Shown piece after piece: positions 15,885-58,167 of a stretch of DNA of 64,000 nt. Origin of the DNA: a virus; the IMG/VR virus record IMGVR_UViG_3300042558_005646, one strand, 5' to 3'. The translations under genes and the position numbers were made by a program. The notes beneath the pieces were generated by a model. The model ran no database searches. It saw nothing but the letters and a program-made list of their open reading frames with translations, and was not told the DNA's origin. The stretch's first letter is position 1, and each line of letters begins with the position of its first letter.

Positions 15885-15891
15885 AAAGAGA

Positions 15892-22957: not shown

Positions 22958-23638
22958 ATGGAACGCTCTTGGTATCATATAGCAAAAGAATGCACTGCCT
23001 TACGTAAAAATGTCTTAAGAATAGATTTATGTATCTTTATTGATGAAGAAAAAGCATTTTCAAATGAAGATTACTTAAACTCAACAATCAAATCAATTCT
23101 TACTTCAGCTATAATTAATGGCTTAGACATTGTGGGAATATTGTCTCCTAGAAGTCCAGCGGTAGGCCTGAGAGCAAAACAAATGGCAATTGAACAACAA
23201 ATGGATATCAATGTTGTTCCTGGTCAGACATACATTTGTACTGGTAAAGAAGAATTATATATTTACAATTTGGCAAAACCCGTACCAGCAAATTTATCAA
23301 TAGACAAAGCTTGTGGATACGTGCATGACAACAATGGTTTTGTATTAGCCACAAATGTTAATTCAAAATTGGGACAAGTCTTAAGCAAACTTCAAGGCAG
23401 CAAGTTTGCTCCTGATGGAGTAGAAATTTTTAATGCTAAATCTGGTGGATATAGAGATATCGATATTGATTTTCCTAGATTTGTAAATTCTGGATCAACT
23501 TCAGCAGCAGATTTAGATGATTCAAATGTTTTTTCTCTTTTACCAAGAAAAACAGCTCAAGAAATGGGATTGATACAGGGAGATCAAGGTATTGATTATA
23601 CTCCCAAATATTTAAAGCCGAACACAGGAGTAGTATAA
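22958..23638 (+). CDS. PHP-fold protein, apparently catalytically degenerate, 226 aa
   Basis: PHP motifs in the correct order but with metal ligands replaced: IDLCIF (DLHxH), GLDIVGILSPR (GLDxIAITDH), VVPGQT (PGxE), GFVLATN (AHP), DGVEIFN, SGSTSA (GSDAH). Confidence 0.6.
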   Translation: MERSWYHIAKECTALRKNVLRIDLCIFIDEEKAFSNEDYLNSTIKSILTSAIINGLDIVGILSPRSPAVGLRAKQMAIEQQMDINVVPGQTYICTGKEELYIYNLAKPVPANLSIDKACGYVHDNNGFVLATNVNSKLGQVLSKLQGSKFAPDGVEIFNAKSGGYRDIDIDFPRFVNSGSTSAADLDDSNVFSLLPRKTAQEMGLIQGDQGIDYTPKYLKPNTGVV

Positions 23639-24132
23639 TGCCACGTTCTTATTGCACAACTAATGATGTCAAACAATACCTTCCACCAAATGTAGTTACA
23701 GAAGGTGACAATCCAATTCCAAACTTTAGAAATCCTACTCCAGAATCAGCATCAAATATTGATTTAGATTTCTTCATTCAACAAGCTTCTGCAGAAATTG
23801 ATGCAAATTTGGCAACTATGTATGATGTTCCATTGAAGCAAGTCAATATTGGTGGAGACGTTTCATATCCACACCCTGTGCCAGTTATTTGCGCAATTCT
23901 GTCTGCACAAATGTACTATATGCAAGCATTACAGGGTGCTGATCCTCAATACTCTGAAGCGCAAAAATCAAGATTTGATTTTGCACAAAATGAAATTGTA
24001 AGAATTCAAAATGGTGAAATCAGATTATTTGGTCAAAGAAATACTCGTGGAGATAGATTTGTAAGATCTACTTTAAGGGGTGTTGTCAGCAATCCTACAG
24101 AAGGCAAAAGATCAAAGGGTCAAAATCAATAG
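23638..24132 (+). CDS. Head-tail adaptor, Mu gp36/DUF1320-like, 164 aa
   Basis: YCTTNDVKQYL...IQQASAEIDANLATMYDVPL...ICAILSA..Y...RFDFAQNEIVRIQNGEIRL pattern. Confidence 0.7.
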   Translation: MPRSYCTTNDVKQYLPPNVVTEGDNPIPNFRNPTPESASNIDLDFFIQQASAEIDANLATMYDVPLKQVNIGGDVSYPHPVPVICAILSAQMYYMQALQGADPQYSEAQKSRFDFAQNEIVRIQNGEIRLFGQRNTRGDRFVRSTLRGVVSNPTEGKRSKGQNQ

Positions 24133-36028: not shown

Positions 36029-36621
36029 TGAAAGAATTTATTGAATATTACGAAAAAATTAAATCAGATAAAGTACATATTATAAATATTGATTCAGTAA
36101 AATTTATTGTAAGAGAAATAACCTGGAAAGAAGGCTTGCTGATAGACGCAAAATCTTTTAGAAAAAAAGACAATATAGTTTATCAAAATTCAGAATTCGA
36201 AAAAAGAGAAATCTTAAGTCTCGCTATTCTACGTGCTTATGATTCTAGTACAAACATAGAATATATCCCAGAATTTGAAACATCTTTGATTCATACAATG
36301 AACCACACAGTAATTGAAAAATTATGGGTGGAATATCAAAACTATCTTTACTTAAATGCAGATGAAGCTAATTTTTATTACATAGCTGCAAAAAAATATT
36401 ACAATCCAAATGATACAGAAACTTATCCTCTTCCCCCTCTAATCGTAGAAATTGATTATATGACAAGAGGATTAGTTTCCATGAGTAAAGATGAATTTGC
36501 AAACTTAAGCATGAAAGAATTTGAAACTATTCAACTTGTTCTGGCTACCAAAAATGAAGTCAAGCCAGAATCAGCTGCTAATTTGGATATAGACTTAGAG
36601 AGAGAATCTCAACGTGTTTGA
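36028..36621 (+). CDS. Putative tail assembly chaperone, 197 aa
   Basis: KFIVREITWKE...EILSLAILR...IEKLWVEY chaperone-like pattern after a tube-like gene; 3' end overlaps the convergent 266-aa gene. Confidence 0.5.
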   Translation: MKEFIEYYEKIKSDKVHIINIDSVKFIVREITWKEGLLIDAKSFRKKDNIVYQNSEFEKREILSLAILRAYDSSTNIEYIPEFETSLIHTMNHTVIEKLWVEYQNYLYLNADEANFYYIAAKKYYNPNDTETYPLPPLIVEIDYMTRGLVSMSKDEFANLSMKEFETIQLVLATKNEVKPESAANLDIDLERESQRV

Positions 36622-37395
36622 TTCTTTAGCAAGAAAATGATTTGCTAATTCTGTTCTATCCCATTGATGAAATATGCAGTAAGGAACACCATCTTTATTG
36701 GTGACTTGCTTACCATCAAAGAAAACTTCTACATTATCACGCTTTATAGCTTCTCCAGTACATGCAAAAGTATCATTGTAAGGATGACATAACATATTCT
36801 TAGGATTATTCTTGAGATATTGGCTTAAGTATCCCAAAAATTGTTGATCCATAACCAAGAATTGTGATTTTCTATTTGTATTTGAAAACATCATCAAACA
36901 GTGATTGATCATATGTTCAATTTTGCCTCCAAATATTCCCCCATTAATCACCCATTCATCTTCATAAGAATCATTGTGAGACCTGAGCATTGTTCTCAAA
37001 GATTGTTCCCACCATAAATTACAGTCATTTTCTTTTATCTTCATGCCTTCCAATGAATAAAACATATTTATATCAGGATGAGATTCAAAAAATTGAAAAG
37101 GATCTGTTTGTATAACTACATCTCTCAAGTCAGAATGCATAACGTATTTATATTCATCAACATGTTCTGAAAGCCAATTATACAAAGCTAAATAACTTGT
37201 ATATAAATTCTCATTATTAGGAATGATGATATCGAAGTATCTTTCTAGCTTCTTAATGTTCTGAGGACTGACATTACTTACAAATACTGCCTTTTCAAAT
37301 GTTTTAAATTTTGAAAGTGAGTTCAAGAAAATATCACCTTCTAAAGAATCAATGCATTTATCTCCGACAGAAAAGTTGACCAGTAAATTTTTCAA
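36595..37395 (-). CDS. Putative GT-A fold glycosyltransferase, 266 aa
   Basis: VMHSDLRDVVIQTDPF (DxxD), INGGIFGG, MDQQFL and C-terminal HQWDR motifs. Confidence 0.6.
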   Translation of the reverse strand: MKNLLVNFSVGDKCIDSLEGDIFLNSLSKFKTFEKAVFVSNVSPQNIKKLERYFDIIIPNNENLYTSYLALYNWLSEHVDEYKYVMHSDLRDVVIQTDPFQFFESHPDINMFYSLEGMKIKENDCNLWWEQSLRTMLRSHNDSYEDEWVINGGIFGGKIEHMINHCLMMFSNTNRKSQFLVMDQQFLGYLSQYLKNNPKNMLCHPYNDTFACTGEAIKRDNVEVFFDGKQVTNKDGVPYCIFHQWDRTELANHFLAKESNTLRFSL

Positions 37396-38219
37396 TTTAA
37401 TTCATCCCTTAATTTATTATATGTATTTTTTATACCCAAATGTAATCCAAGCAAATCTATATCAAATAAATGCAAATTATAATCACCGTAATAATTTAAT
37501 CCAAAAGAGCTGCTATTGACAACAATATCAACTTTATGGTCGGACAATTCATTTATAATTTCCGCAATTGTACTAAGCTTGTATTTTTCTTGGTAAGAAC
37601 AGTTAATAATTTTTTGTGAAGTATTTGATTCAATAACAAATTTTATAACTTCACATAAATCATCCATATAGAAAAAATCCATCCATTTATCTTGATGAAT
37701 TACAATTGGTTTTTTATTTATGTAATTAACAATACTTGCTTTTATCATTCTAGAAGAAAGTTCATCTTCATTGAAAACATTAAATATTCTTATATTATGA
37801 AAATTTGGATACAATATTCCAGACTTGGCAATAAAGTTTTTACTCATCCCATAAGGATCAATTGGAAAAGCACTTTTCAATTCAACAGAAGGATCAATTC
37901 CGTATCTTCTGTCTAATTCTGCTCCTGATCCAAATGAAATATATTTATCAAATGAGCAAGCATTATCTAATATATTTTGATGCATTATGCAGTTTTCATA
38001 AAAAACATCTGAAGTATCTTCTTTGAGTCTACTTCCACCAGAAGTAGCTGTGTGAATTACAGCATCAAAAAATCTATGTTCAAAAAATTTTTTTACAGAT
38101 TTGGCATCTATTAAATTCAAGTTGGATCTATTTGCTAAGGTTAAATCATAGTCAGAAAATTGCTTGGCTATATTTCGGGCAATGTATCCATTACTACCAG
38201 TAATTAATAACTTTTTCAT
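37392..38219 (-). CDS. NAD-dependent epimerase/dehydratase/reductase (extended SDR), 275 aa
   Basis: LITGSNGYIA, YGMSK (YxxxK), RIFNVF; start moved to MKKLLIT just after the TPP gene stop. Confidence 0.85.
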   Translation of the reverse strand: MKKLLITGSNGYIARNIAKQFSDYDLTLANRSNLNLIDAKSVKKFFEHRFFDAVIHTATSGGSRLKEDTSDVFYENCIMHQNILDNACSFDKYISFGSGAELDRRYGIDPSVELKSAFPIDPYGMSKNFIAKSGILYPNFHNIRIFNVFNEDELSSRMIKASIVNYINKKPIVIHQDKWMDFFYMDDLCEVIKFVIESNTSQKIINCSYQEKYKLSTIAEIINELSDHKVDIVVNSSSFGLNYYGDYNLHLFDIDLLGLHLGIKNTYNKLRDELN

Positions 38220-38220
38220 A

Positions 38221-39951
38221 TTAGCTCCACTGAGCTTCAGATAGTCTGCCTGGAATAAATCTTCCATTTTCATCCATCTTTGCTACAACTCTAGGTTCAA
38301 AAATTTCATTTGGATCTGTGAAAACTTCGCAAAGACAAGGCCCATCATATTCAAAGAACTCAGTCAATCGACTTTCAATTTCACTATTATTTTTAATAGC
38401 AAAATAAGGTATTCCATATGCATCAGATATTTTTTGAAAATTTGGAAAAGAAACTCCACTTGATTTTTCTGAAGCTACATAATGACCTTTGAAAAATGAT
38501 TTTTGTGTTACTTTGATCGACAAATAACCTTCATTATTTAGCAGTAAAATTTTAATCGGCAAATTGTTGTGCATCATTGTTTGAAGTTCATGAATATTAA
38601 GATGTAAACTTCCATCACCTTCAATACATAATGTTTTTTGCCCAGTAGAAGCAACTCCGATAGCACAAGGAAGGCCATAACCCATAGGGGCACAACCAGT
38701 ATTTGTAATAAGTCTCTGGTTGTCTTTTAGCTTCACTACCTGCATAGTGACAACATTGGCAGATCCATCGCTTGTTACTATGTCGTAAGTAGGGGGAGTT
38801 ATTTCTGATAATTTTTCAATCAAAAAGTAATTACTTACATAATCAGTTTTTTCACGATGTTTGGCTAATACTTTTGGAGACCTCAGAGCTTCACATTCTG
38901 ATATCCAATCTGCTGAAGCTTTATTGATGAAAACTTTATTCAAATTATTTATGAATTTTTTTGCATCTTCGCAAACTTTCATATCAAGTCTAAGTGTAGG
39001 TTTTTCTAATTCGTTTGAGTCAATATCTACTGCAATTTTGTATGCGTTTTTGCCAAAATCATCAAAATTGTAACCTATTTGACGTACATAAAGTCTTGAA
39101 CCAATAGAAATTATAAAATCAGCTTCATTAATAAGCTTATTAGCGCATATCTGAGCATGAGTACCAAATCTCCCATAATAGTAGGGGTAAGATTCATTGA
39201 CAATATCGTTCCCATTAACTGCAGTAATGACAGGTATATTGGTCTTATCTAGAAGCTCAAATAAATTTTCAACAGCTCCTGAAATTCTTACACCATTCCC
39301 AACAATTAGTAATGGTTTCTTTGCTTTATTCCAAGAGTTCACTATAGAAATATAATCTACTGTAGATTGCGTCATCTCAATAATACTTGGCACAAAAGGT
39401 TTCAATTTTGATGGTTCAATTTGAGCAGACTGTACATCTAGGGGAATATCAACCCACACAGGTCCAGGTCTTTTATTAAGTGCAAAATAACACGCTTTTT
39501 CTAGATAATAGCGAATTTCTTCTGGATTGTTTACTTGAACAGCAAATTTTGTCATTGTCTTTGCAGTTTTTACAATATCAAATTCTTGATCACCTAATTG
39601 CCTAAGACTCAATTTAGTGTAATTTGTAGTCATTGGAGTGTTTACTTGTCCACTAATGACTATCACAGGAACTGAATCCAAATAACTGCATAGAGTTCCT
39701 GTGAGGGCATTTGTACCACCAGGACCAGAAGTTACTAAGCAAGCCCCTAGTTTATTCTTCTTTCTAGCGTAACCCTCTGCAGCAATTGATGCTCCTTGTT
39801 CATGATGAGTTGCTATGTAATTTACGTCTTCAGATTTTCCAAGTGAATCAACTAAATGTATACAACCACCTCCTGAAAGTGTAAAGATTGTATCTACATC
39901 ATAGTTATCGTGAAGAAATTTAATTACATAATCTGATAGTTTCATAAACAT
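38221..39951 (-). CDS. TPP-dependent enzyme, acetolactate synthase/YerE-like, about 576 aa
   Basis: HHEQGASIAAEGYAR, VTSGPGGTNA, RPGPVWVDIP, MGYGLPCAIG, EGDGS...LLNN TPP motif. Start may be MKLSDY at 39945. Confidence 0.92.
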   Translation of the reverse strand: MFMKLSDYVIKFLHDNYDVDTIFTLSGGGCIHLVDSLGKSEDVNYIATHHEQGASIAAEGYARKKNKLGACLVTSGPGGTNALTGTLCSYLDSVPVIVISGQVNTPMTTNYTKLSLRQLGDQEFDIVKTAKTMTKFAVQVNNPEEIRYYLEKACYFALNKRPGPVWVDIPLDVQSAQIEPSKLKPFVPSIIEMTQSTVDYISIVNSWNKAKKPLLIVGNGVRISGAVENLFELLDKTNIPVITAVNGNDIVNESYPYYYGRFGTHAQICANKLINEADFIISIGSRLYVRQIGYNFDDFGKNAYKIAVDIDSNELEKPTLRLDMKVCEDAKKFINNLNKVFINKASADWISECEALRSPKVLAKHREKTDYVSNYFLIEKLSEITPPTYDIVTSDGSANVVTMQVVKLKDNQRLITNTGCAPMGYGLPCAIGVASTGQKTLCIEGDGSLHLNIHELQTMMHNNLPIKILLLNNEGYLSIKVTQKSFFKGHYVASEKSSGVSFPNFQKISDAYGIPYFAIKNNSEIESRLTEFFEYDGPCLCEVFTDPNEIFEPRVVAKMDENGRFIPGRLSEAQWS

Positions 39952-40966
39952 TTTCCAGTGCTGTTTTTATTATAGAATAATCTTCAATTTTTTGAATTAC
40001 TGGTTGATTATCTTTGATTAGCACCATGTTAACACAGCCAGTATTTTTCTTATCTGACTTGACACATTCCATAAGGCTCTCATAATCAAACCATTCTTGA
40101 TTAACAGATACTGTATTTTCTAGAAGTTTTTTGACAATATTTAATGTTGCAGAATAATCTTTGTAATTATAGTTATAAGATAGTTCACTTAACCTCAAGG
40201 CTACAAGACATCCAATTGCCACTGCATATCCATGCGATAACTTGTACTTTGAGGTAATTTCTAAAGCATGACCAAATGTATGACCAAAGTTCAGGAATTT
40301 ACGCTCTTTTTTATCAAATTCATCAATCTCTAAAACTGAAATTTTATAATTAAGACTTTTATGAATGTGATACAAAACATTTTTATTTTCAGTAATCAAA
40401 TCAATGACATTTGATTCTTGAATTTTATTTCTCAAGATATCAAACTTCAACAATTCGCCTAAACCACTACAAAAGTTTTCTTTACTTAAACCATCAAGCC
40501 ATTCTTCACAAATAAGAATTTCACAAGGAGGATAAAATGTACCAAGAATATTTTTTCTTGACCCATAATTGATAGAAGTTTTACCGCCAACACAGCTATC
40601 GATTTGAGAAAGCAATGTTGTTGGAACTAAATAATATTCAATACCTCTACAATAAACAGAAGCACAAAAACCCACTGCATCTTGTAAAACTCCACCACCA
40701 ATAACTACAAGTTTAGTTTGCGTATTGACTTTTTTTGCAGCAAATTTATCAAATATTTTTTCTAAACCACGCCATGATTTTAAGTCTTCATTTGTGTCTA
40801 TAACTATGAGATCACCTAATCCAAATTCAGGAAAACAGTGAGCAACATTTTTGTCAACTACTGCAAGATGATAATCTTCACCAATGAGTTTATATATTTC
40901 GCTCAAGCTTACAAAATTTACAGAATAATCTTTGATTTTTGATTTGACATCTATTTGGCTGTACAT
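39920..40966 (-). CDS. 3-dehydroquinate synthase-like sugar-phosphate cyclase, 348 aa
   Basis: IGGGVLQD, PTTLLSQIDSCVGGKT, KN, GELLK, DE..ERKFLNFGHTFGHALE, HG.AVAIG, DKKN. Confidence 0.9.
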   Translation of the reverse strand: MYSQIDVKSKIKDYSVNFVSLSEIYKLIGEDYHLAVVDKNVAHCFPEFGLGDLIVIDTNEDLKSWRGLEKIFDKFAAKKVNTQTKLVVIGGGVLQDAVGFCASVYCRGIEYYLVPTTLLSQIDSCVGGKTSINYGSRKNILGTFYPPCEILICEEWLDGLSKENFCSGLGELLKFDILRNKIQESNVIDLITENKNVLYHIHKSLNYKISVLEIDEFDKKERKFLNFGHTFGHALEITSKYKLSHGYAVAIGCLVALRLSELSYNYNYKDYSATLNIVKKLLENTVSVNQEWFDYESLMECVKSDKKNTGCVNMVLIKDNQPVIQKIEDYSIIKTALENVYETIRLCN

Positions 40967-41589
40967 GAATAACCACCATCTATAACTATATTTTGACCAG
41001 ATATATATGAATTGTTTACACTCAAGTAATATACTAAATCTGCAACTTCATTTGTATATCCCAATCTACCAACTGGAATTTTGCTTCTTAAATCTTTCAA
41101 ATCTTCTTCTGTGTTATTTTGAAAAGTCATATCCGTGATAAAAAATCCAGGAGACACAGTGTTTGCCAAAATATTATAAGTGCCATATTCAGCAGTTATA
41201 GCTTTTGTAAGAGAGTGTAAGGCATTTTTGCTAGCACTATATGAGGATCTTCCAGGTTTTGCATAATCTACCCATACACTTCCAATATTTACAACCCTGC
41301 CATAATTTTGTTTCTTCATATGAGGTAAGCAAAGTTTAAATAATCTTAAAGGTGAGAAATAATTTACTGTCATCATTTCTTCATAATTCTCACCTTCAAA
41401 TATAGAATCTATTATGTTAATACCAGCGTTATTTATTAAAATATCAATTTTGTCTGGAATAAAAGAAAAGGGTTGAGATAAATCAAGTTCTTCACGAGTT
41501 GGAGCAATAACTTCATGACCATATTTTTTGAAAATTTCACAAATATCACTGCCTATGCCTCTTGACCCACCAGTGATAAGTATTCTCAT
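40951..41589 (-). CDS. Classical SDR oxidoreductase (FabG-like), 212 aa
   Basis: TGGSRGIG, NNAG, YSASK, VSPG, GQNIVIDGG. Confidence 0.9.
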   Translation of the reverse strand: MRILITGGSRGIGSDICEIFKKYGHEVIAPTREELDLSQPFSFIPDKIDILINNAGINIIDSIFEGENYEEMMTVNYFSPLRLFKLCLPHMKKQNYGRVVNIGSVWVDYAKPGRSSYSASKNALHSLTKAITAEYGTYNILANTVSPGFFITDMTFQNNTEEDLKDLRSKIPVGRLGYTNEVADLVYYLSVNNSYISGQNIVIDGGYSCTAK

Positions 41590-42386
41590 AATTCAGAAGC
41601 TGATTTATTTATACGAGCTTGAATCATTTTAACTCTTGATTCATCTTGATTGGCTTGAGATTGATAATATTCCATCTTGTTTGTAAGCCATTCGTATTCA
41701 AACATTTGAGCCTTGAATAGTGCTCTGGATAAATTCTTTAGTGTAATTGAAGGATCAAATATTGCATATCTTGTTTCAAACTTATCAAGAAGTTTTTCAG
41801 AGTGTAATTTCTTTAAAAAGTCTAATGAATCAATTGAAACAGCACCACCAATACAAGCTTTAGCACCAAGCTTTTTAGTTCTTTCAAAAACATCATGAGC
41901 CATATTGTAAACTTCTTCAGAATTTACGTGACTTCTATCTGCTCCCATTGAAGAAACTAAATCTACTCTTCCGACAGTAACTCCATACAAAGCAGATGCG
42001 TTTTGGTTTGAAAGAATTTTGTCAATAGCTAAAACTGCAGAAATAGTCTCAATATTCACATTAAGCTGCAACGAACTTACAACTTCGGAAGGTAAATTAT
42101 TATTAACAGCTTGAACAAATTTAGTTAAACCAAATTCAGACTCAACCATCGGGGCTACCAAACCCTTTACTCCAATGATCATAGAGTCTTTGATATCTCT
42201 TATAGCTTCTGGTCCACCTATCTTTAAGGTTACTTTTGTTTTTGCTTGATTACAAATTTCTTTAAGTCTAAGAACTTCATTAAATGCAGCTCCTTCGTCT
42301 TCAAAACTTGTCTTAACGCCAACCAATCCGTAGTTTTCTACTAGATCTGTCAGAATTCTAACACACTCAAATTCTCTATTATTCAT
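41586..42386 (-). CDS. HpcH/HpaI aldolase-citrate lyase family protein, 266 aa
   Basis: KIGGPEA..D...GVKGLVAPMVES, NIET, VTVGRVDL..SMG. Confidence 0.75.
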   Translation of the reverse strand: MNNREFECVRILTDLVENYGLVGVKTSFEDEGAAFNEVLRLKEICNQAKTKVTLKIGGPEAIRDIKDSMIIGVKGLVAPMVESEFGLTKFVQAVNNNLPSEVVSSLQLNVNIETISAVLAIDKILSNQNASALYGVTVGRVDLVSSMGADRSHVNSEEVYNMAHDVFERTKKLGAKACIGGAVSIDSLDFLKKLHSEKLLDKFETRYAIFDPSITLKNLSRALFKAQMFEYEWLTNKMEYYQSQANQDESRVKMIQARINKSASEL

Positions 42387-42401
42387 AAATATATTTTACC
42401 A
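42386..42401 (-). promoter_or_regulatory. Putative extended -10 promoter for leaderless transcript (TGG-TAAAAT-N6-ATG)
   Basis: Minus strand TGG TAAAAT (42398-42393) atattt ATG (42386); overlaps the rmlB Trp and stop codons. Confidence 0.5.
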
Positions 42402-43349
42402 AATGAAATGTGTTTTATAATATTCGACTATCTTTTTGATTTCATCGTCAAAAACACACTGAGGAGTCCAGCCTAAACCTCTAATCTTGTCGTCATTTAA
42501 AGCATATCTGACATCTTGTCCAGGTCTTTCAATTCCAAAATTAATAAAGTCTTGGTAATTATCCACTTCTTTTCCAAAGTATGCGTTCAAAACTTTTCTT
42601 ACTGTGTCTACATTTGATTGCTCAAACCCACCAGCGACATTGTAAATTTCGTTCTGCTTACCAGCCTCAATAATCTTCAACACAGCCAGAGCAGTGTCTT
42701 TTGCATGAAGCCAATTTCTTACTGGAGTACCTTGGTTATGTAATGGTATCTTTCTTTCAAGTCCTATAAATTTGCAAGATTTTGGAATCAACTTTTCAAC
42801 ATATTGTCCTTCGCCATAATTATTTGTAGGTCTTATGATATTGAAAGGTATGTCGTATGTTCTAGACCAAGCAATAATAAGTTGATCTGCAGCAGCTTTT
42901 GTGGCAGAGTAAGGATTACTAGGCTTCAAGATGTCTGTTTCAAAATGCTCACCATCTGCAATATCACCATAAACTTCATCTGTGCTGAAGTGAATTAGGG
43001 TTGGTACTACATATCCTTCTTTTTTGTATGTCTTAAGTAATTCAAGAATGTTGTGAACACCATAAATATTTGAATCAACAAAAACTTTACTGTCTCTTAT
43101 AGAATTATCTACATGAGTTTCTGCAGCTATATTGATAAAATAGTCACAATCCACCAATCTATCAATGTTGCAAATATTTTTATTTTCAAATTTGAATTTT
43201 GGATTAAGCATCCATTTTTCTAAAACACTAACGTCAGAGGCATAAGTACAATTGTCTATGCCATAAACATAGTATCCCTTATCAAGCAAAAGTTGAGTTA
43301 CTTGTCTGCCAATAAAACCTAAACAACCTGTAATATAAGCTAATTTCAT
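42396..43349 (-). CDS. rmlB: dTDP-glucose 4,6-dehydratase, 317 aa
   Basis: AAETHVDNSI, HFSTDEVYGD, PSNPYSATKAAAD, NNYGEGQYVEKLIP, RNWLH, RPGQDVRYAL. Confidence 0.9.
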   Translation of the reverse strand: MKLAYITGCLGFIGRQVTQLLLDKGYYVYGIDNCTYASDVSVLEKWMLNPKFKFENKNICNIDRLVDCDYFINIAAETHVDNSIRDSKVFVDSNIYGVHNILELLKTYKKEGYVVPTLIHFSTDEVYGDIADGEHFETDILKPSNPYSATKAAADQLIIAWSRTYDIPFNIIRPTNNYGEGQYVEKLIPKSCKFIGLERKIPLHNQGTPVRNWLHAKDTALAVLKIIEAGKQNEIYNVAGGFEQSNVDTVRKVLNAYFGKEVDNYQDFINFGIERPGQDVRYALNDDKIRGLGWTPQCVFDDEIKKIVEYYKTHFIW

Positions 43350-44326
43350 TTATTCAATTTACGCTCTATGGTGTTTTTGATAAGATTTAGTACATTCCAG
43401 TCTTCAAAATTTTGTGTGCGAATATATTCACAAGTTCCGTCTGCAAAGTACCAATCAATTGTATCAACGCAAAATAAAATTAAAGTTTTGTTTTCATCAT
43501 AAACAACAGCATCTGTAAAAGATAAGCACCCAGGACCAGACTGACTAGTAACTATAACATCGCAGAATTTATGTAAATATTCAATTTCATCCAAGTTTGG
43601 AATTGGAAAATAATCATCAATATAATAGACATTGTTTGTTTTTATTTCATTAATTTTTGAAGTTAAGAGGAAGCAAATATTTGGATTATCTTTTATGTAG
43701 TCAGACAAAATATCTTCGTAAATATAATTTCTTCTTTGTCCAGAGGTTGTATTACCATTGCAGATCATGACTCTCATATCGTAATGACTTGTATCATTTA
43801 TTAATTTATCTGCAAAAAATTTGTATCTTGGATTGGAATTCCATTTACATACAAATTCTTTATGATCTGGAACCTCTAACTGCTTTGTAGAGAAATTCTC
43901 AATCAAAAAACTATTTATATTGTTGATTTTTTCTTGATAAAGTTTTGATTGCCAAATAGTTGAATCTTGAATTTCTTTACACCCAGAATGATAATTTCCA
44001 TTTTCGTCAGGAAGCTTGTACCCACCAGTTTCAATCTCTCTCATCTTTTCATAACTTGCTGCCCAAACATCTATCCAAAGAGCATCATCAAAGAATTCAG
44101 ACTTAAGATTATTTTTTAATTTCAATGCAGTACAACCATACATAAAATGAGGTAATGCAATTACAGTAACTTTTTCATGAATAAAACAAGTATCTTTGTC
44201 CTTAGTATGTAAATAAAAATAATTAAAATTATCACCTAGTTTATTAACTACCCATCTAACACCTTGTCTTGAGTGTAAAATGTCACCATACCCATGAGAA
44301 TTACAAAAAATAATAGTTTTTTTCAT
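43346..44326 (-). CDS. Putative GT-B (GT9-like) glycosyltransferase, 326 aa
   Basis: N-terminal HGYGDILH and C-terminal CDVIVTSQSGPGCL resemble the GT9 GxGD and DSGPxH motifs; start moved to MKKTIIF. Confidence 0.5.
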   Translation of the reverse strand: MKKTIIFCNSHGYGDILHSRQGVRWVVNKLGDNFNYFYLHTKDKDTCFIHEKVTVIALPHFMYGCTALKLKNNLKSEFFDDALWIDVWAASYEKMREIETGGYKLPDENGNYHSGCKEIQDSTIWQSKLYQEKINNINSFLIENFSTKQLEVPDHKEFVCKWNSNPRYKFFADKLINDTSHYDMRVMICNGNTTSGQRRNYIYEDILSDYIKDNPNICFLLTSKINEIKTNNVYYIDDYFPIPNLDEIEYLHKFCDVIVTSQSGPGCLSFTDAVVYDENKTLILFCVDTIDWYFADGTCEYIRTQNFEDWNVLNLIKNTIERKLNK

Positions 44327-44366
44327 AAAAAAATTATACATTTATTGTTGGTATAATGTTCTCATG
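44324..44366. promoter_or_regulatory. Back-to-back divergent leaderless promoters of the two main glycan operons
   Basis: Minus: TATAAT (44338-44333) N6 ATG (44326). Plus: TGG-TATAAT (44352-44357) N6 ATG (44364). Confidence 0.65.
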
Positions 44367-48274: not shown

Positions 48275-49239
48275 TGAAACAAAAAATGTTAATTTGCGGA
48301 GCAACAGGTTTTTTAGGTAGAAATATTCTTGAATATTATTCCAAAAAAAATCAGTATGATATCAAGGCAGTGCACTTTAGAAGACCAGCAATCATAGAAT
48401 ACCAAAATGTTGAGTGGATACATTGTGATTTAAGAAATTCTGATGACGTAAAAAAAGCTATTGAAGGAGTGGATATAGTCTTACAATTTGCTGCAACAAC
48501 ATCAGGAGCAAAGGATATTCTATCAAAACCATATATTCACGTTACTGACAATGCTATTATGAATTCTTTACTATTGAGAGAATCATTTGAGCAAGAAGTT
48601 AAGCATTTTATTTTTCCTAGCTGTACAATTATGTATCAAAGCTCAGAAAATCTTATTAAAGAAACTGATTTTAATCCTGCTGACGAAATAAAATCTACCT
48701 ATTTTGGAGCTGGTCATACTAAAGTTTATTTAGAGAATATGTGTGAATTTTATTCAAGGTTTGGCAAAACAAAACATACAGTAATTAGACATTCAAACAT
48801 CTATGGTCCTTACGATAAATTTGATTTAGAAAAGTCTCACGTTTTCGGAGCGACAGTTGCTAAAGTTTTCAATTCTACAGATGGATATGTTAATGTTTGG
48901 GGCGCAGGTGAAGAAAAGAGAGATTTACTTTATGTTGAAGATTTTTTAAGTTTCATAGATTGCGCAATATGTAATCAAAAAAGTTTTTTTGATATTTTTA
49001 ATGTGGGCTTGGGTCAATTCATAAGTATAAAAGACTTAGTTGACAAAATTATCAAGCAAGGTATAATTCCCTTGAAAGCAAGGAATGACTTATCCAAACA
49101 ATCTATTTCAACATCTATATGTTTGGATTGCACAAAGGCGAAAAACATTCTTGGTTGGTCACCCAAATTTACTTTAGATGCTGGAATTTTAAAAACTATT
49201 GAGTGGTATAAATTATGGAACAAAATGGATACTCTTTGA
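48274..49239 (+). CDS. Second fucose-synthase-like NAD-dependent epimerase/reductase, 321 aa
   Basis: CGATGFLG, RHSNIYGPYDKFD, VWGAGEEKRDLLYVED. Confidence 0.82.
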   Translation: MKQKMLICGATGFLGRNILEYYSKKNQYDIKAVHFRRPAIIEYQNVEWIHCDLRNSDDVKKAIEGVDIVLQFAATTSGAKDILSKPYIHVTDNAIMNSLLLRESFEQEVKHFIFPSCTIMYQSSENLIKETDFNPADEIKSTYFGAGHTKVYLENMCEFYSRFGKTKHTVIRHSNIYGPYDKFDLEKSHVFGATVAKVFNSTDGYVNVWGAGEEKRDLLYVEDFLSFIDCAICNQKSFFDIFNVGLGQFISIKDLVDKIIKQGIIPLKARNDLSKQSISTSICLDCTKAKNILGWSPKFTLDAGILKTIEWYKLWNKMDTL

Positions 49240-49961
49240 CTAAAGAACAAATAGACGAATTTCATGAAAATGGTTTTCTTCATTTGAAAAATGTGTTTTC
49301 AAATAAATATTGTCTTGAACTATTAGATGAGGCAGAAGAAAAGTCTAATGGATTTTACACAAACTATCTTCATTTTCATCGTACAGGCAAGTTTAGAAAA
49401 CTAATTGCTGGTAAAACAATGTGTGATATTGGGGATTCGTTAATGGATCATAAAATGATTCCTTGCGGAAGTGGCTTCTTTTTCTGCAAACCAAACAATC
49501 CTCTTGAGCATGGGTCTGTTTGGCATCAGGACAATTATTCAGTTAAGGCTCCATTCAATTCATATTTAAATTTAGCCGTAGTTCTAGACGACGCAGATGA
49601 ATCAAATGGTTCGCTTACAGTAGTACCTGGTTCTCATAAATTAGGTGACCTTCCTAATGATCCTAAACCAAATTTTAAGTACGATGAAGAAGGAAGACTT
49701 TACCAATTTGCACCTATTGGAAATAACTGCGAAGTACCAGAAGGTTACCCAATTGTAAACTTGACTTATAACAGAGGTGATGTTTTATGTATACATGCAC
49801 ACATTGTTCATAAGGCAAATAAAAATGTTCACGAAACAAAATGGAGAAGAAAAATTTATCTCGATTACATCAAGAATGGTGACCCATTTTGGCCAGGCTG
49901 GACTGCAAAAAGATTACTCTTAGAAAGATACGATTCACCTCACTATAAGGATGAAGATTAA
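49215..49961 (+). CDS. Phytanoyl-CoA dioxygenase (PhyH) family 2OG-Fe(II) enzyme, 248 aa
   Basis: EQIDEFHENGF, WHQD (HxD), LDDADESNGSLTVVPGSH, GDVLCIH..IVH. Confidence 0.88.
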   Translation: MEQNGYSLTKEQIDEFHENGFLHLKNVFSNKYCLELLDEAEEKSNGFYTNYLHFHRTGKFRKLIAGKTMCDIGDSLMDHKMIPCGSGFFFCKPNNPLEHGSVWHQDNYSVKAPFNSYLNLAVVLDDADESNGSLTVVPGSHKLGDLPNDPKPNFKYDEEGRLYQFAPIGNNCEVPEGYPIVNLTYNRGDVLCIHAHIVHKANKNVHETKWRRKIYLDYIKNGDPFWPGWTAKRLLLERYDSPHYKDED

Positions 49962-49964
49962 AAG

Positions 49965-50507
49965 ATGAAAAAAGCACTTGTTATTACTTGGGAAAAGTAT
50001 CAAGACCATGAATTGATTTATCCATATTATTCTCTAAAAGAACATGGATTTGAAGTTGATATTATGGCAAACAAGGTAGGAAAAATTTGGGGCAGTTTAG
50101 GAACTCATATGCCTTGTACTCGAGAAACTTCTGAATTCGAAAATTTAGAAAACATCGAAAAATACCTTAATGAATATGAAATTTTAGTTGTACCTGGTGG
50201 TGTAAAAGCGCTTGAAAAGGTTCGACAAGAAAAAGGTGTTTTAGAATTCATTAGACAATGGAACGAAAAAAGAAAAACCATCTTTTGTATCTGTAATGGT
50301 GCTCAATTGTTAATTTCTGCTAAGATTTTAAATGGCAGAATTATGTCAGGATATTATTCAATTGATATTGATATCGAAAATGCAGGAGCTACATATGATA
50401 GAAGTCCTGTTGTAGTCGATGATAATATAATTTCCTGCCCACATTATGACTTTATGGGCTTATGGCTTAAAACAGCATTTGAAGTTCATGCAAATAGAAT
50501 CTCATAA
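49965..50507 (+). CDS. DJ-1/PfpI family protein, 180 aa
   Basis: YQDHEL, VPGG, nucleophile elbow ICNG, VVVDDNIIS. Confidence 0.88.
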   Translation: MKKALVITWEKYQDHELIYPYYSLKEHGFEVDIMANKVGKIWGSLGTHMPCTRETSEFENLENIEKYLNEYEILVVPGGVKALEKVRQEKGVLEFIRQWNEKRKTIFCICNGAQLLISAKILNGRIMSGYYSIDIDIENAGATYDRSPVVVDDNIISCPHYDFMGLWLKTAFEVHANRIS

Positions 50508-51169: not shown

Positions 51170-52000
51170 ATGAATAACTATTTAGAGAAAGTTTTTGAAA
51201 AAATTTCTTTTTGCAGGCATTTTGAACAATATGTTTATAAAAAAGTGCAAGATAAAACTATCAAAATCCCAGTGTATTTATCAGCTGGTCAAGAAAGTAC
51301 TCCTTGTTCAATTTCAACTTATTTAGAAGATAAAAATATTAAGCCAAATATTTTTATTCAACATAGAGGACATTCAACATACTTGGCTTTTGAAGCGCCA
51401 CCTGAAAAGCTAATTGATGAATTACTTGGGTTAGATTCCGGCTGTGCATTTGGTATGGGAGGTTCTGCTTCTATACAATCTTTAGAAAAAAATATATTTG
51501 GTCATGATGGTTTAATGGGTTCTCAGGTACCTATTGCTGTTGGACATTGCTATCAAACAAAACAACCAACTATTGTTTTTATGGGAGATGCATCTGCGGA
51601 AGAAGATTATGTTGGTGCAGCCATAGGGTGGGCTTCAACTAAAAATCTACCAATTCTATTTGTTGTTGAAGATAATAATTTGTCAATTCTTACAGAAAAG
51701 AAGATTAGAAGAAACTGGAATATGCATGAGCTTGCACAAGCATATAAGGTTGAAGCTTATGACATTGAAGATAGTCCTACAGAAATTTTCAATCATCTCA
51801 AAAATGTTTTTAATACTCCTTTATTGTTGAATGTGAGAACTATCAGAAAATTTTGGCATTCTGGTGCTGGAATTGATGGGGATTATTTTGATAGGCTTGA
51901 ATGGATAAAAGAAACCTTGCAGTTTGATACATCATTTATCGATGAAAACAACAAAAATAAAGTTGAGGCATTATGGCAATCACGCTTAGAGACACTATAA
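51170..52000 (+). CDS. TPP-dependent dehydrogenase E1 alpha-like subunit, 276 aa
   Basis: YLSAGQE, HRGH, GSQVPIAVG, MGDAS..E...NLPILFVVEDN. Confidence 0.88.
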   Translation: MNNYLEKVFEKISFCRHFEQYVYKKVQDKTIKIPVYLSAGQESTPCSISTYLEDKNIKPNIFIQHRGHSTYLAFEAPPEKLIDELLGLDSGCAFGMGGSASIQSLEKNIFGHDGLMGSQVPIAVGHCYQTKQPTIVFMGDASAEEDYVGAAIGWASTKNLPILFVVEDNNLSILTEKKIRRNWNMHELAQAYKVEAYDIEDSPTEIFNHLKNVFNTPLLLNVRTIRKFWHSGAGIDGDYFDRLEWIKETLQFDTSFIDENNKNKVEALWQSRLETL

Positions 52001-52893
52001 AATCAATAGTAAAAGACCATTTAGTTAGCAAAAAAGGCAAAGCATATGGTCAATGCTTAACTGCTGTAGGCTGGGTTGGTGGAACTTTACCAGAGCTTTA
52101 TGAACATGATGGCATGGTTGAACTTTCTATGGCAGATGTTGCTGGTGGTGCAATTGTTGTTGGTGCAGCTTTAGCTGGAGATAGACCTATTTATGTAGTT
52201 AGATATCAAGGTTTTCAGTGGTATAACTGCGTGTCAATTGTTAATTATGCCGCAAAATCTAAATCAATATGGAAAAGGCCTTGTCCAGTTTTTGTGAGAT
52301 CTATTGCTATGGAAGGCGGAATTGGGCCTGTTGCTGGTTCATCTCATCATTCCTTGGTTTATAGAATGCCCGGAATTAAAATTGCAAGTCCCATGTCTCC
52401 ATCAGAATATTTAGAATGTTATGATCATTTTATGAACGATGATGAGCCATACTATATATCTGAACATAGAAAAAGCTATGATAATACATCTAATTTATGT
52501 GATGTTTTTGAAAACGAGACTCCAGATTTTACAATTTTCCCAATTTCAATAACCAGATTTGAAATGGACAAACTAGTTCAATTATGTAAAGAATATAGTA
52601 TCAAGATTAACATATGTAATTTGATGTGGTTGAAACCACTTAAAGTATCCGACAAAGCTATAAAGAGTCTAAGTAATTCAAAATTTGGAGGCTTAGTATT
52701 AGATGATGATTACGAAAGCGGTTGCCAATCACATATTGCTAATCAATTATCAGTATCTTCTAGTAAAATTGTTAGATGCTTGGGCCTGGAAGATAAAACA
52801 GCAGGCTTCTATAACAGAGTTGATGTTCTACCTCCAACTGCTAAAAGTATCGTTGATTTTTTATTGAATATTAAAAACGAAACTAGGGTATAA
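51973..52893 (+). CDS. TPP-dependent dehydrogenase E1 beta/transketolase-like subunit, 306 aa
   Basis: GAALAGDRPI, GPVAGSSH, PGIKIASP, NLMWLKPL, LVLDDD. Confidence 0.85.
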   Translation: MAITLRDTIKSIVKDHLVSKKGKAYGQCLTAVGWVGGTLPELYEHDGMVELSMADVAGGAIVVGAALAGDRPIYVVRYQGFQWYNCVSIVNYAAKSKSIWKRPCPVFVRSIAMEGGIGPVAGSSHHSLVYRMPGIKIASPMSPSEYLECYDHFMNDDEPYYISEHRKSYDNTSNLCDVFENETPDFTIFPISITRFEMDKLVQLCKEYSIKINICNLMWLKPLKVSDKAIKSLSNSKFGGLVLDDDYESGCQSHIANQLSVSSSKIVRCLGLEDKTAGFYNRVDVLPPTAKSIVDFLLNIKNETRV

Positions 52894-54078: not shown

Positions 54079-54849
54079 ATGAAAAGTCAATTTAAAAATA
54101 TAAATATATTAGTTATTGGAGATTCTTGCACTGATATTTTCACTTATGGAAATGTTTATAGATTGGCTCCAGAAGGCCCAGTACCCGTTTTTAATCCAAG
54201 CCATTCTCAAAGTAGTGGTGGAATGGCTTTAAATGTGCATCGCAATATTGTTGCAATAGGAGCAAATGCTACACTAATCTGTCAAGAAGAAGAAATTTAC
54301 AAAACAAGATATGTTGATTATCGGACAAATAGTCTTCTTCTAAGAATTGATACAAACGACAAATCAACAAGAATCAGTAGAGAAGTAATTAGTAAAATAA
54401 AAAATAATCATTATTTAGATGTAGCATACGATGCAATAATTATAAGTGATTATTGTAAAGGTTTTCTTGAAGAGGATGATATTTCTTTCATTGGAAGAAA
54501 TAATAAAAATGTTTTTCTAGACACTAAAAAAATTTTAGATGAATGGTGCAAGAATGTTTCATATATTAAAATAAATGAAACTGAATATGAAAGAACATTA
54601 CATACTATAGAAAAGTTAAATATTAATAAAAAACTTATAATAACAAAGTCTGATAAAGGTTGTGAATTTGATGGAAATATATTTCCAGTTGAAAAAGTTA
54701 ATATTAAAGACTTATCTGGCGCTGGAGATACTTTTATTTCAGGATTAGCTGTAGAGTTTGCAAGATCTAATGATATTTTTAATTCAATTGTTTTTGCTCA
54801 AGAATGTGCTACTAAAGTTGTGCAAAAGAAAGGTGTGTGTACTATATGA
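54079..54849 (+). CDS. PfkB-family kinase, HldE/RfaE domain I (heptose-7-phosphate kinase)-like, 256 aa
   Basis: VIGD, RLAPEGPVPV, GG.ALNV, LLRID, ISDYCKG, INETE, DLSGAGDTF. Confidence 0.85.
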   Translation: MKSQFKNINILVIGDSCTDIFTYGNVYRLAPEGPVPVFNPSHSQSSGGMALNVHRNIVAIGANATLICQEEEIYKTRYVDYRTNSLLLRIDTNDKSTRISREVISKIKNNHYLDVAYDAIIISDYCKGFLEEDDISFIGRNNKNVFLDTKKILDEWCKNVSYIKINETEYERTLHTIEKLNINKKLIITKSDKGCEFDGNIFPVEKVNIKDLSGAGDTFISGLAVEFARSNDIFNSIVFAQECATKVVQKKGVCTI

Positions 54850-55718
54850 TAGATATAGATACAATTATTCGTGAAAGATTAAATCTTCATGATATCTCTG
54901 ACATAGATTGTTATAAAAACATTGACAAAAGAAATGAATTTCATACAAAAATAAAAGACATTATTAATGAACATGTTCCGAAGATTGAATCAAAACATAA
55001 CCCAGAACATGAAGCACTTCTTAAAGATCAAGGATATGTCATTTTTGAAAATTTTTTGAGCCAAGAGCAAGTAAATAGTATTTTAGAATACACTAAAGAT
55101 AAAGCTGGATATAATTTCCATGTTCCTAATAGAGCTTACAATAAAGAAACTAAAATTTTTTCTGACGATATAGATTGGAATATTTTAGCTTATAATACAG
55201 ATGTATTACTTAAAAACGAGTTAATTATCAAAATTATGACTGACCCTGTGTTAGTTTCATTGGCGCAATCATATATAGGTTGCTTGCCCTCTGTACATAT
55301 GCTAAGTATGTGGTGGAGTAAATTCACAGGTGAAGTTTTTCACACTCAAAAAATACACAGAGACGGGGACGATTATAAGTTTTTAGCTTTTTTTGTTTTC
55401 TTGACTGATATTGATGAAAACAATGGACCTCATATTTTTTATCCAAGAACACAAAATGGTTCAGATGATCTTTCTGAAAAAGTTGTTATAACAGGAAAAG
55501 CAGGAACTGCAGTTTTAGCAGATACATTTGCTTGGCATCATGGAGCACCTTTAAAGGAAGGTAAAAGAATGCTAATGTTTATTAGATTTGGTCTATTTAA
55601 AAATAATAATTATTATAGAGATGAAAGCTACGTACATGCTCAAGATTCTGATGTATTCTTTAGTAAAATTGAAGATTCATATACTAATAGGCATTTATTG
55701 AGGTTATTTATCAAATGA
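54846..55718 (+). CDS. Second PhyH-like 2OG-Fe(II) dioxygenase, 290 aa
   Basis: QGYVIFENFL, HRD (HxD), FLTDIDENNGPH, GTAVLADT..WHHG; start moved to ATG 54846 (ATGA overlap). Confidence 0.75.
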   Translation: MIDIDTIIRERLNLHDISDIDCYKNIDKRNEFHTKIKDIINEHVPKIESKHNPEHEALLKDQGYVIFENFLSQEQVNSILEYTKDKAGYNFHVPNRAYNKETKIFSDDIDWNILAYNTDVLLKNELIIKIMTDPVLVSLAQSYIGCLPSVHMLSMWWSKFTGEVFHTQKIHRDGDDYKFLAFFVFLTDIDENNGPHIFYPRTQNGSDDLSEKVVITGKAGTAVLADTFAWHHGAPLKEGKRMLMFIRFGLFKNNNYYRDESYVHAQDSDVFFSKIEDSYTNRHLLRLFIK

Positions 55719-56856: not shown

Positions 56857-58167
56857 TTATTTGTCAAAAAAACTATCCAAAACATCACTTATATAATAAA
56901 TTTGTTCCGGTGTAATTACTGGAGATGTACCTAAAAAGAAAGTATCAGTGGTTACCTTTTTAGCTACAGGAAAATCACCAAGATCCATATCACCAACCAA
57001 ATGACTATAAGCTGGTTGCATAAGAATATTTCCAGCAAAATATGGTCTAGTTTGAATTTTTTTAGATTCTAAATATTGACATAAATCACTTCTCTTAAAT
57101 GGTGCGTTATCTTTTATAGTAATAGGAAATGCAAACCAATTAACATCTGAATTTTTTTGTGCTACTGGAAGAACAAAGTATTCTTCATACTTGCTAAAAA
57201 TATCAAAAAGCAACTTATGATTTCTTTGGCGAAGTTTCTTAATTTCATTAAGTTTATCAATTTGAGCCAACAACATACTAGCTTGAACTTCGATTGGTTT
57301 TAAATTATAACCAATTTCCTCATACACATACTTGTGATCAAAAACTTCACCTGGGATACTTGGCAACCATTCAGAAAATCTTTTATTACAAGCTCCACAT
57401 TCTGTAATATTTTGTTTACCAATACAGAAACAGCCACGCCCCCAATCACGAAAAGAACGAATTACTTTTTCAAGATTTTCATCATTACAAACAACTAATC
57501 CACCCTCACCACAAGTAATGTGATGAGCAGGATAAAAAGAGCAAGAAGCCATTGCGCCAAAGCTGCCTAAGGGATTACCATCAAATGACGATCCAAGAGC
57601 ATCACAGCAATCTTCTAACAAAATCAACCCATAATGGTCGATGATATCTAATAGCCTATACATGTCAGGAGGATTACCAAGTACATGAGCAAATGTAATT
57701 ATCTTGATCTCTGGGTCAGCCTGCAATGTGGCTTCAACATCGTCTAAGTTCAAGTTCAATCCATCTAATGAAATATCTACAAAGACTGGCTTAAAACCAC
57801 ACTGAAATATGGGATTGATTGTAGTGGGAAATCCAGCAATAGGAGTTAGTACTTTGGTTCCTTCAGGCAAATTTAAGTATCTTTTTGACTTAATTGCTGA
57901 CATCATAAGAAGATTTGAACTGCTACCAGAGTTTGTCAATAAAGCATGGTTTTTGCCAAATAAAGAAGCTAATTTCTTTTCAGCTTTATAGGCTTCAGCA
58001 CCAAGAACTAACCAACCATCTAGAAGAGTTGATACTGATCTAACAATTTCAGTATGATCAAAGTAAGGCCCAGCATAATGTACATGATCTTTTCCTGGTC
58101 TCCAACTCTTATTTGGTTCATTCTTGATATACTCTTCTACTAATTTAAGCAATTCTTCTTTGGTCAT
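56857..58167 (-). CDS. rfbH: CDP-4-keto-6-deoxyglucose 3-dehydratase (E1, RfbH/DdhC), 436 aa
   Basis: NSGSSSNL, AGFPTTINP, HVLGNP, EDCCDALG, SFYPAHHITCGEGG, RDWGRGCFC...C..RF (Fe-S), DHKYVYEEIGYNLK. Confidence 0.92.
   Translation of the reverse strand: MTKEELLKLVEEYIKNEPNKSWRPGKDHVHYAGPYFDHTEIVRSVSTLLDGWLVLGAEAYKAEKKLASLFGKNHALLTNSGSSSNLLMMSAIKSKRYLNLPEGTKVLTPIAGFPTTINPIFQCGFKPVFVDISLDGLNLNLDDVEATLQADPEIKIITFAHVLGNPPDMYRLLDIIDHYGLILLEDCCDALGSSFDGNPLGSFGAMASCSFYPAHHITCGEGGLVVCNDENLEKVIRSFRDWGRGCFCIGKQNITECGACNKRFSEWLPSIPGEVFDHKYVYEEIGYNLKPIEVQASMLLAQIDKLNEIKKLRQRNHKLLFDIFSKYEEYFVLPVAQKNSDVNWFAFPITIKDNAPFKRSDLCQYLESKKIQTRPYFAGNILMQPAYSHLVGDMDLGDFPVAKKVTTDTFFLGTSPVITPEQIYYISDVLDSFFDK

Follow-up and report, generated by a model that had tools for sequence, protein, structure and literature searches.

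A five-gene phage cassette as the possible core of a pathway for a caryophyllose-type branched sugar

Introduction

The IMG/VR virus record IMGVR_UViG_3300042558_005646 is represented here by a stretch of 64,000 nucleotides (nt), called the window, in which five consecutive minus-strand genes at positions 37392-42386 code for a predicted aldolase, a short-chain dehydrogenase/reductase (SDR), a relative of 3-dehydroquinate (DHQ) synthase (DHQS), a thiamine diphosphate (ThDP)-dependent carboligase and an extended-SDR reductase. We consider it moderately probable that a jumbo phage here encodes, in this cassette, the central part of a pathway for an acyl-branched, caryophyllose-type 3,6-dideoxyhexose, namely the enzymes that build the donor and attach it as a branch. 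Domains were assigned by Pfam and NCBIfam profile searches, with PHROG for extra open reading frames (ORFs), and the related loci fetched for comparison carry L numbers.

The five-gene cassette

An earlier note on this DNA had described, at 37392-42386, five overlapping or abutting genes with a putative promoter of their own. All five ORFs are present on the minus strand with identical coordinates and are given below in the direction of transcription, with product lengths in amino acids (aa).

41586..42386, minus strand: HpcH/HpaI-family (aldolase/citrate-lyase family) class II pyruvate aldolase-like protein, 266 aa (PF03328, 35 bits)
40951..41589, minus strand: short classical SDR (FabG-like ketoreductase), 212 aa (adh_short, 127.8 bits)
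39920..40966, minus strand: DHQS-like protein, candidate sugar-acid phosphate phospho-lyase, 348 aa (TIGR04425, 298.9 bits)
38221..39951, minus strand: YerE-like ThDP-dependent carboligase with three domains, 576 aa (JanthE, PDB 8rph, 394.6 bits)
37392..38273, minus strand: extended-SDR (Epimerase/RmlD-like) nucleoside diphosphate (NDP)-sugar reductase, 293 aa (PF01370, 74.9 bits; RmlD_sub_bind, 29.7 bits)

At the first three junctions neighbouring genes share 4, 16 and 32 nt, and the last comes to about 1 nt if the reductase starts at Met19. This codon, at 38219, is likely the true start, giving a protein of 275 aa, because it stands directly before the GxxGxxG motif (GSNGYIA) and because that length fits the 253-281 aa of the relatives. 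The five genes are the middle part of a series of eight co-directional genes that extends from 44341 to 36595 on the minus strand, and are not a self-contained unit. The promoter did not hold up: a 4,6-dehydratase gene lies only 9 nt upstream of the aldolase gene, and the promoter-like match at 42445-42417, which agrees at 9 of 12 positions, belongs to a set of 47 across 8.6 kb, a count equal to the level of shuffled sequences (46.4 +/- 6.9). A separate cassette promoter is rejected for this lack of enrichment. No terminator-like site was found in the same 8.6 kb.

The ThDP-dependent carboligase

The nearest solved relative of the phage ThDP enzyme is JanthE from Janthinobacterium sp. HH01 (PDB 8rph/8rpi/8rpj), with a score of 394.6 bits for 8rph in an alignment that spans residues 5-563, nearly the full length. 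It is followed by 5ahk, which we take to be PpYerE, at 257 bits, and by acetohydroxyacid synthases (AHAS) at about 226 bits or less. JanthE is a YerE-like, ketone-accepting carboligase that accepts long and 4-hydroxylated 2-oxo acids. The phage protein has the HEQ catalytic glutamate and the canonical GDG...NN ThDP motif, where JanthE has CDG. It scores under every AHAS equivalog cut-off (352.9 bits on TIGR00118, whose cut-off is 538), which goes against a housekeeping identity and agrees with the YerE-type assignment that the earlier note had given to this acetolactate synthase (ALS)-like protein. Neither an AHAS small subunit nor other ilv or shikimate genes are found among the scanned ORFs of the window. 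The predicted activity is probably that of a YerE-like sugar-branching carboligase rather than of IlvB.

The extended-SDR gene always comes after the ThDP gene in the related loci, and its product is a candidate for a YerF-type side-chain ketoreductase.

The DHQS-like protein, the short SDR and the aldolase

The best family of the DHQS-like protein is TIGR04425, 'AroB-related putative sugar phosphate phospho-lyase', on which it scores under the cut-off of 400, and its 242.6 bits on the aroB family TIGR01357 are likewise below the cut-off of 305. The DHQS-like protein of a bacterial cassette (L012) comes to 392 bits on TIGR04425 (cut-off 400). This cut-off is passed in none of 14 control genomes, and a literature search found no paper that mentions the family. 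In the tree, the DHQS-like proteins of the cassettes group together and are separated from four AroB-like proteins with support of 100/100; the phylogeny that the earlier note had proposed as a check thus places them outside the AroB clade, which is part of the answer to its question of a housekeeping placement.

The catalytic, NAD, zinc, phosphate and carboxylate positions of DHQS, whose roles we take from the structure literature on the Aspergillus nidulans enzyme, are invariant at 13 of 13 sites in 18 cassette DHQS-like proteins. K250, R264 and N268 are retained, and in a control, a second DHQS-family protein of Arsenicibacter, they are replaced by H, A and D. Chains of 2-deoxy-scyllo-inosose synthase (DOIS) and 2-epi-5-epi-valiolone synthase (EEVS) score lower than DHQS chains. 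Since the phosphate and carboxylate positions are kept, the substrate is most likely an acid phosphate similar to 3-deoxy-D-arabino-heptulosonate 7-phosphate (DAHP), and not sedoheptulose 7-phosphate or glucose 6-phosphate. Cyclases that use sedoheptulose 7-phosphate or glucose 6-phosphate (EEVS, desmethyl-4-deoxygadusol synthase (DDGS) and DOIS), and with them an aminocyclitol pathway, are rejected on account of the retained carboxylate-binding residues. After the third zinc histidine, the HGE sequence is HG followed by Y, L, I, V, T or Q in 17 of the 18 cassette proteins, and HGE is kept in the protein of L066.

The translation of the short SDR has the motifs TGGSRGIG, NNAG and YSASK. Its gene is tied to that of the DHQS-like protein: loci of the near group without the latter also have no SDR gene, and four divergent loci have a DHQS-like gene and no detectable SDR.

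No protein of the module is better conserved than the aldolase (64-90% identity over five loci). Its AlphaFold2 model (mean predicted local distance difference test score, pLDDT, 88.8) has HpcH/HpaI class II pyruvate aldolases as the top PDB matches in Foldseek, with E about 1e-9. The family comprises 332 clusters at E<1e-30, and its members are named 'aldolase/citrate lyase family protein' by NCBI. In all related loci the ThDP gene has the aldolase gene next to it or nearby. The likely role of the aldolase is to provide a keto-acid donor of a non-standard kind, and the enzymes encoded beside it suggest that its product carries a phosphate group.

Recurrence, fusion and exchange of genes in related loci

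Related loci were mapped by tblastn; they are kin to one another, so that counts of loci are not independent. The order aldolase (HpcH), SDR, DHQS, ThDP enzyme, reductase recurs, with protein identities of 41-98%, in 66 of the fetched loci, which is far beyond chance. Metagenome contigs with about 50-65% identity have the same order with the dehydratase gene in front, and often a gene for RfbH just upstream; this arrangement is also that of a Terrimicrobiaceae metagenome-assembled genome (MAG) contig (L009) and of L003, which is probably bacterial because the contig ends in a TonB-receptor-like gene. The RmlB-like dehydratase precedes the aldolase in most of the related loci, and in many of them a RfbH homologue lies just upstream of the dehydratase. 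A pattern scan detects the aldolase in at least 83 IMG/VR viral contigs, giant-virus MAGs among them, and the module is present in the giant-virus MAG contigs L082, L083 and L087. The scan of bacterial contigs used two exact peptide patterns, and the four bacterial loci that it found are not a measure of rarity. A tblastn search with the aldolase against 50,697 GenBank phage records gave no match.

In five viral loci of giant-virus type the aldolase (amino-terminal part) and the DHQS-like protein (carboxyl-terminal part) are encoded by a single ORF of 580-612 aa:

L077, 5034-6860: aldolase-DHQS fusion
L080, 6986-8728: aldolase-DHQS fusion
L083, 4057-5895: aldolase-DHQS fusion
L085, 6225-8018: aldolase-DHQS fusion
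L086, 6953-8722: aldolase-DHQS fusion

L083 is labelled GVMAG and the other four group with it in trees. The fusion implies that both enzymes act on the same metabolite.

The loci with both aldolase and ThDP genes fall into 66 that have the SDR and DHQS genes and no haloacid dehalogenase (HAD) gene, and 14 that lack SDR and DHQS. In 13 of these 14, all viral, a HAD protein of 131 aa is encoded exactly between the aldolase and the ThDP enzyme (L029, 7801-8196; L021, L031, L032, L038, L062, L063, L067-L070, L076 and L081). The small protein has the motifs DFDGV, TAKA and DDKA, and its neighbours in the Atlas are HAD phosphatases of the polynucleotide kinase (PNK) type and capsular ones. The ThDP enzymes of these cassettes belong to a different lineage, and across the loci ThDP lineages track the cassette type.

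HAD genes also accompany bacterial relatives. The fourteenth locus, of Arsenicibacter rosenii (L010), has a HAD gene for a product of 222 aa as the direct upstream neighbour of its ThDP gene; the order there is RfbF-like, RfbG-like, epimerase, methyltransferase, HAD, ThDP enzyme, aldolase, RfbH. In a Chitinophagaceae MAG (L011, 8362-10494) the aldolase gene lies between those of a HAD phosphatase and a CTP_transf_3 cytidylyltransferase, with sulfate-activation and sulfotransferase genes adjoining. By analogy with the logic of Kdo synthesis, this locus may encode a route to a CMP-activated 3-deoxy-ulosonic acid that starts from pyruvate and not from phosphoenolpyruvate (PEP).

The residues, the phylogeny, the fusion and the exchange of genes in the slot between aldolase and ThDP enzyme together point to a phosphorylated aldolase product with two routes for removal of its phosphate, which would be HAD hydrolysis in one cassette type, and DHQS-type elimination with ketoreduction by the SDR in the other.

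Two related loci have further features. L001 encodes a family-B polymerase, and its SbcCD-like neighbours suit a T4-like phage as well as a giant virus. In L007 (3096-8078) the cassette stands beside genes for a Shikimate_dh_N protein, a split transketolase, a SIS isomerase, an APH-like kinase and a cupin, a set of heptose- or cyclitol-like parts that the window does not have in that form.

Proposed pathway

In the pathway that we favour, the HpcH-like aldolase would join pyruvate to an aldose phosphate, most simply erythrose 4-phosphate, to give a DAHP-like 3-deoxy-heptulosonate 7-phosphate. The DHQS-like enzyme, using the NAD+ and metal chemistry of its family, would then carry out a transient oxidation followed by elimination of the phosphate, and the short SDR would reduce the remaining ketone. 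The resulting 3,7-dideoxy-heptulosonate would be an alpha-keto acid ending in a methyl group. The RmlB-like dehydratase and RfbH would provide the acceptor, an NDP-4-keto-3,6-dideoxyhexose, and at its C4 the YerE-like ThDP enzyme would add the donor after decarboxylating it. Finally, the extended-SDR reductase would reduce the new side-chain carbonyl in the manner of YerF, and the sugar would bear a branch of the 1,3,4,5-tetrahydroxyhexyl type, like caryophyllose. The family and fold assignments, the synteny, the fusion, the phosphatase variant and the conserved residues are observations; we infer all substrates, the order of SDR and DHQS-like enzyme, that no ring closes, the stereochemistry, and which nucleotide carries and which acceptor finally receives the sugar.

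Caryophyllose is 3,6-dideoxy-4-C-[D-altro-1,3,4,5-tetrahydroxyhexyl]-D-xylo-hexopyranose, with a terminal methyl group and no carbocycle. Its branch, CH(OH)-CH2-CHOH-CHOH-CHOH-CH3, corresponds to the structure expected from a decarboxylated 3,7-dideoxy-heptulosonate. The earlier note had proposed that aldolase, SDR and cyclase build either a keto-acid donor or a ring, for a sugar like caryose or caryophyllose. The donor part of that proposal is strengthened and the caryophyllose-like product is the best guess. The ring, and with it a caryose-like carbocycle, has become less likely because caryophyllose, whose Mycobacterium marinum locus is annotated with a DHQS-family gene, has no carbocycle, and because the sister cassettes replace DHQS and SDR by a plain phosphatase.

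Several points weigh against the proposed pathway. None of the residues of a true DHQ synthase is lost from the DHQS-like protein, and Bartlett and Knowles are said to have found that the enol intermediate of DHQS cyclises spontaneously; taken together, these leave ring closure compatible with the sequence. Given the kinship of the loci, the 66/14 split has no value as a statistical test. The window has neither a nucleotidyltransferase nor an E3-type reductase in the Pfam and NCBIfam scans, and as the dehydratase is RmlB-like and not RfbG-like, a nucleotide other than CDP may be the carrier. The likeness to the caryophyllose sub-locus of M. marinum (see the last section) is one of annotation names, and a literature search found no paper that links caryophyllose with dehydroquinate or with a DHQS-family enzyme. 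As a speculation on the first point, a conjugate return of the hydride, as in 4,6-dehydratases, would bypass the reactive enol.

Alternative assignments

The alternative that survives best, unlikely as we judge it, is that the DHQS-like protein truly closes a ring. The carbocycle formed by aldolase and DHQS-like enzyme would then resemble dehydroquinate, and its reduction by the SDR would give a cyclitol similar to quinate; the ring compound would either offer its ketone to the ThDP enzyme as acceptor or end up in a glycan that is caryose-like or bears a cyclitol. The intact catalytic residues speak for it, as do the acceptance of bulky cyclic ketones by JanthE-type enzymes, the possibility of reducing the DHQ ketone by an SDR, and the gene for a shikimate dehydrogenase amino-terminal domain a few genes from the cassette in L007. 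It is opposed by the cassettes that are devoid of DHQS and SDR and keep the aldolase beside the ThDP gene with a phosphatase alone between them, which implies that there the aldolase product feeds the ThDP step. In addition, the sugar made by the M. marinum locus, where a DHQS-family gene is annotated, has no carbocycle, the strict linkage with RfbH and a 4,6-dehydratase suggests an NDP-keto-sugar as acceptor, and DHQ is not an alpha-keto acid and could not be the ThDP donor. That such cyclisation leads this phage, and the many other phages and giant viruses with the module, to a carbocyclic sugar, caryose-like or quinate-bearing, is a doubtful proposition. Were it true, a pyruvate-dependent DAHP-type synthase would be fused or coupled to a DHQ synthase, and there would be a second, PEP-independent entry to DHQ-type carbocycles that serves glycans rather than aromatic amino acids.

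A different order of reactions is improbable. The ThDP enzyme would attach the keto acid in its phosphorylated form, and the DHQS-like enzyme and the SDR would take off the phosphate and tailor the side chain afterwards on the NDP-sugar. The position of the SDR and DHQS genes before the ThDP gene does not fix the order of the reactions, which leaves room for this scheme. However, the DAHP-carboxylate-binding residues K250 and R264 are invariant in all cassette proteins, although the carboxylate would be gone after decarboxylation by the ThDP enzyme, and the DHQS-like protein is found fused to the aldolase and not to the ThDP enzyme.

Auxiliary genes that would serve the synthesis of aromatic and branched-chain amino acids (AroB and IlvB), favoured by automatic names (JGI gives '3-dehydroquinate synthase') and by the prasinovirus papers that place such genes under amino-acid metabolism, are very hard to credit and are rejected on the sub-cut-off scores of both proteins, the position of the DHQS-like protein outside the AroB clade with the ThDP enzyme nearest to YerE-like enzymes, the lack of other shikimate or ilv genes and of an AHAS small subunit among the scanned ORFs, the recurrent synteny with RfbH, dehydratase and glycosyltransferases, and the fusion of the DHQS-like protein to an aldolase. 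PEP mutase/phosphonate and aminoshikimate (3-amino-5-hydroxybenzoate, AHBA) pathways were likewise dropped, given the YerE-like ThDP enzyme and the linked RfbH and dehydratase.

Flanking genes and the phage setting

The remaining genes of the co-directional series and the RfbH gene are the following.

43346..44341, minus strand: protein of 331 aa without family match, first gene of the series
42396..43349, minus strand: RmlB-like NDP-glucose 4,6-dehydratase, 317 aa (TIGR01181, 288.6 bits, cut-off 365; GDP_Man_Dehyd, 173 bits)
36595..37395, minus strand: weakly glycosyltransferase-like protein, 266 aa, last gene of the series (phrog_1579, E 2.3e-4)
56857..58167, minus strand: RfbH (E1-type NDP-4-keto-6-deoxyhexose 3-dehydrase), 436 aa (NF011936, 441.5 bits, cut-off 423)

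The dehydratase gene, separated by a gap of 9 nt from the aldolase gene that it precedes, itself overlaps the gene at 43346-44341, whose product has no Pfam, NCBIfam or PHROG match and no homologue among the related loci. At the downstream end, the cassette is overlapped by the glycosyltransferase-like gene, which, in this position after the reductase gene, is shared by the closest relatives alone (L007, L008 and L014-L017).

The description of the window as phage DNA in the earlier note is borne out by the major head protein gene at 58241-59095 on the minus strand (phrog_2522, E 2.4e-68). A head-tail adaptor-like gene is found at 23638-24132. The 358-kb IMG/VR contig L016 encodes a DHQS-like protein that is 95% identical to that of the window. 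A megablast of the structural region of the window against phage genomes gave no match.

The cassette belongs to a sugar island of ~21 kb, which further contains several extended SDRs and two DegT-family enzymes. One of the latter is RfbH, encoded 14 kb from the cassette and adjoining the major head gene, behind which its own gene follows after 73 nt on the same strand. RfbH may be co-produced with the late structural genes, which hints at glycosylation of the virion.

A second ThDP system is encoded at 51170-52893 on the plus strand by a split pair, E1-alpha-like (276 aa) and E1-beta/transketolase-pyr-like (306 aa). It resembles the two-subunit enzymes of alpha-keto-acid-dehydrogenase type that put two-carbon branches on antibiotic sugars (review PMC12247030). 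By this analogy the island may yield a second branched sugar. Also on the plus strand, the segments 49215-50507 and 54079-55718 code for two PhyH dioxygenases, a DJ-1/PfpI protein and a truncated HldE-like heptose-7-phosphate kinase domain. Elsewhere in the window, the GC content falls to 0.23-0.25 at 12001-16000, compared with ~0.32 in other parts. This lies inside an ORF for 1324 aa (11898-15872) that comes after an ORF for 3469 aa and has no Pfam match.

Implications

With the proposed pathway, a type of biosynthesis that is already described in the literature would be extended to a jumbo phage. The proposal would also reassign to rare-sugar biosynthesis a widespread viral pair of look-alikes of DHQS and ALS, on record in prasinoviruses since 2008, that has passed for an 'amino-acid' pair. 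An uncharacterised DHQS clade would thereby get a candidate job, the elimination of phosphate to create a terminal deoxy group on a sugar-acid donor. The sister cassettes with a HAD phosphatase offer a natural control for this role, and the aldolase-DHQS fusion is material for biochemistry. Viruses that have the pathway probably use it for glycans of the virion or of the host surface. Long-branched sugars such as caryophyllose affect the encounter of mycobacteria with macrophages. YerE-like enzymes are wanted as biocatalysts for tertiary alcohols, and the viral YerE-like clade represents a large untapped pool of them.

Comparison with known systems

AroB (EC 4.2.3.4) is of the same fold family as the phage DHQS-like protein and has the zinc, phosphate, carboxylate and NAD positions in common with it. 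The phage protein differs in its separate clade, its sub-cut-off score, the lack of a shikimate context and the fused or adjacent aldolase.

Prasinovirus OtV5 has an 'acetolactate synthase' (037f) and a '3-dehydroquinate synthase' (039f) near an epimerase (041r), a dTDP-glucose 4,6-dehydratase (043f) and a glycosyltransferase (035f), a likeness to the phage module that is drawn from gene names. The prasinovirus literature files these genes under amino-acid metabolism.

In M. marinum, mutants in MMAR_2331-2333 are devoid of caryophyllose. The supplementary table of PMC12395582 lists MMAR_2331 as aldolase/citrate lyase, MMAR_2332 as ThDP-binding, MMAR_2333 as GT2, MMAR_2335 as RfbH and MMAR_2336 as CDP-glucose 4,6-dehydratase. 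By RefSeq names, the lipooligosaccharide sub-locus from MMAR_2329 to MMAR_2336 has the same parts as the phage system, including a DHQS-family protein; no annotation was found for MMAR_2330. No mycobacterial member was present among the aldolase-family proteins checked, and the literature search found no paper that describes roles of MMAR_2329 or of an SDR in the caryophyllose sub-locus. The two systems differ in that M. marinum uses RfbF and RfbG, and thus CDP-glucose, whereas the phage has a RmlB-like dehydratase and no nucleotidyltransferase in the window; the former is a bacterium with a lipooligosaccharide and the latter a virus.

A common route for erwiniose, caryophyllose and gastriose was described by Steitz et al. 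2022 (PMC9306805). A 4-hydroxy-2-oxo acid made by an aldolase is joined by a YerE-like ThDP enzyme to a 4-keto-3,6-dideoxyhexose, and a reductase then acts on the product. The clusters as described there have no DHQS-like enzyme. ErwI is an aldolase of BphI type that works with an acetaldehyde dehydrogenase, whereas the phage aldolase is of HpcH type and its product is seemingly phosphorylated. The logic of the phage cassette is nonetheless common to that of ErwE/F/I/J for erwiniose, MyGE/MygI/MygF for gastriose and YerE/YerF for yersiniose A.

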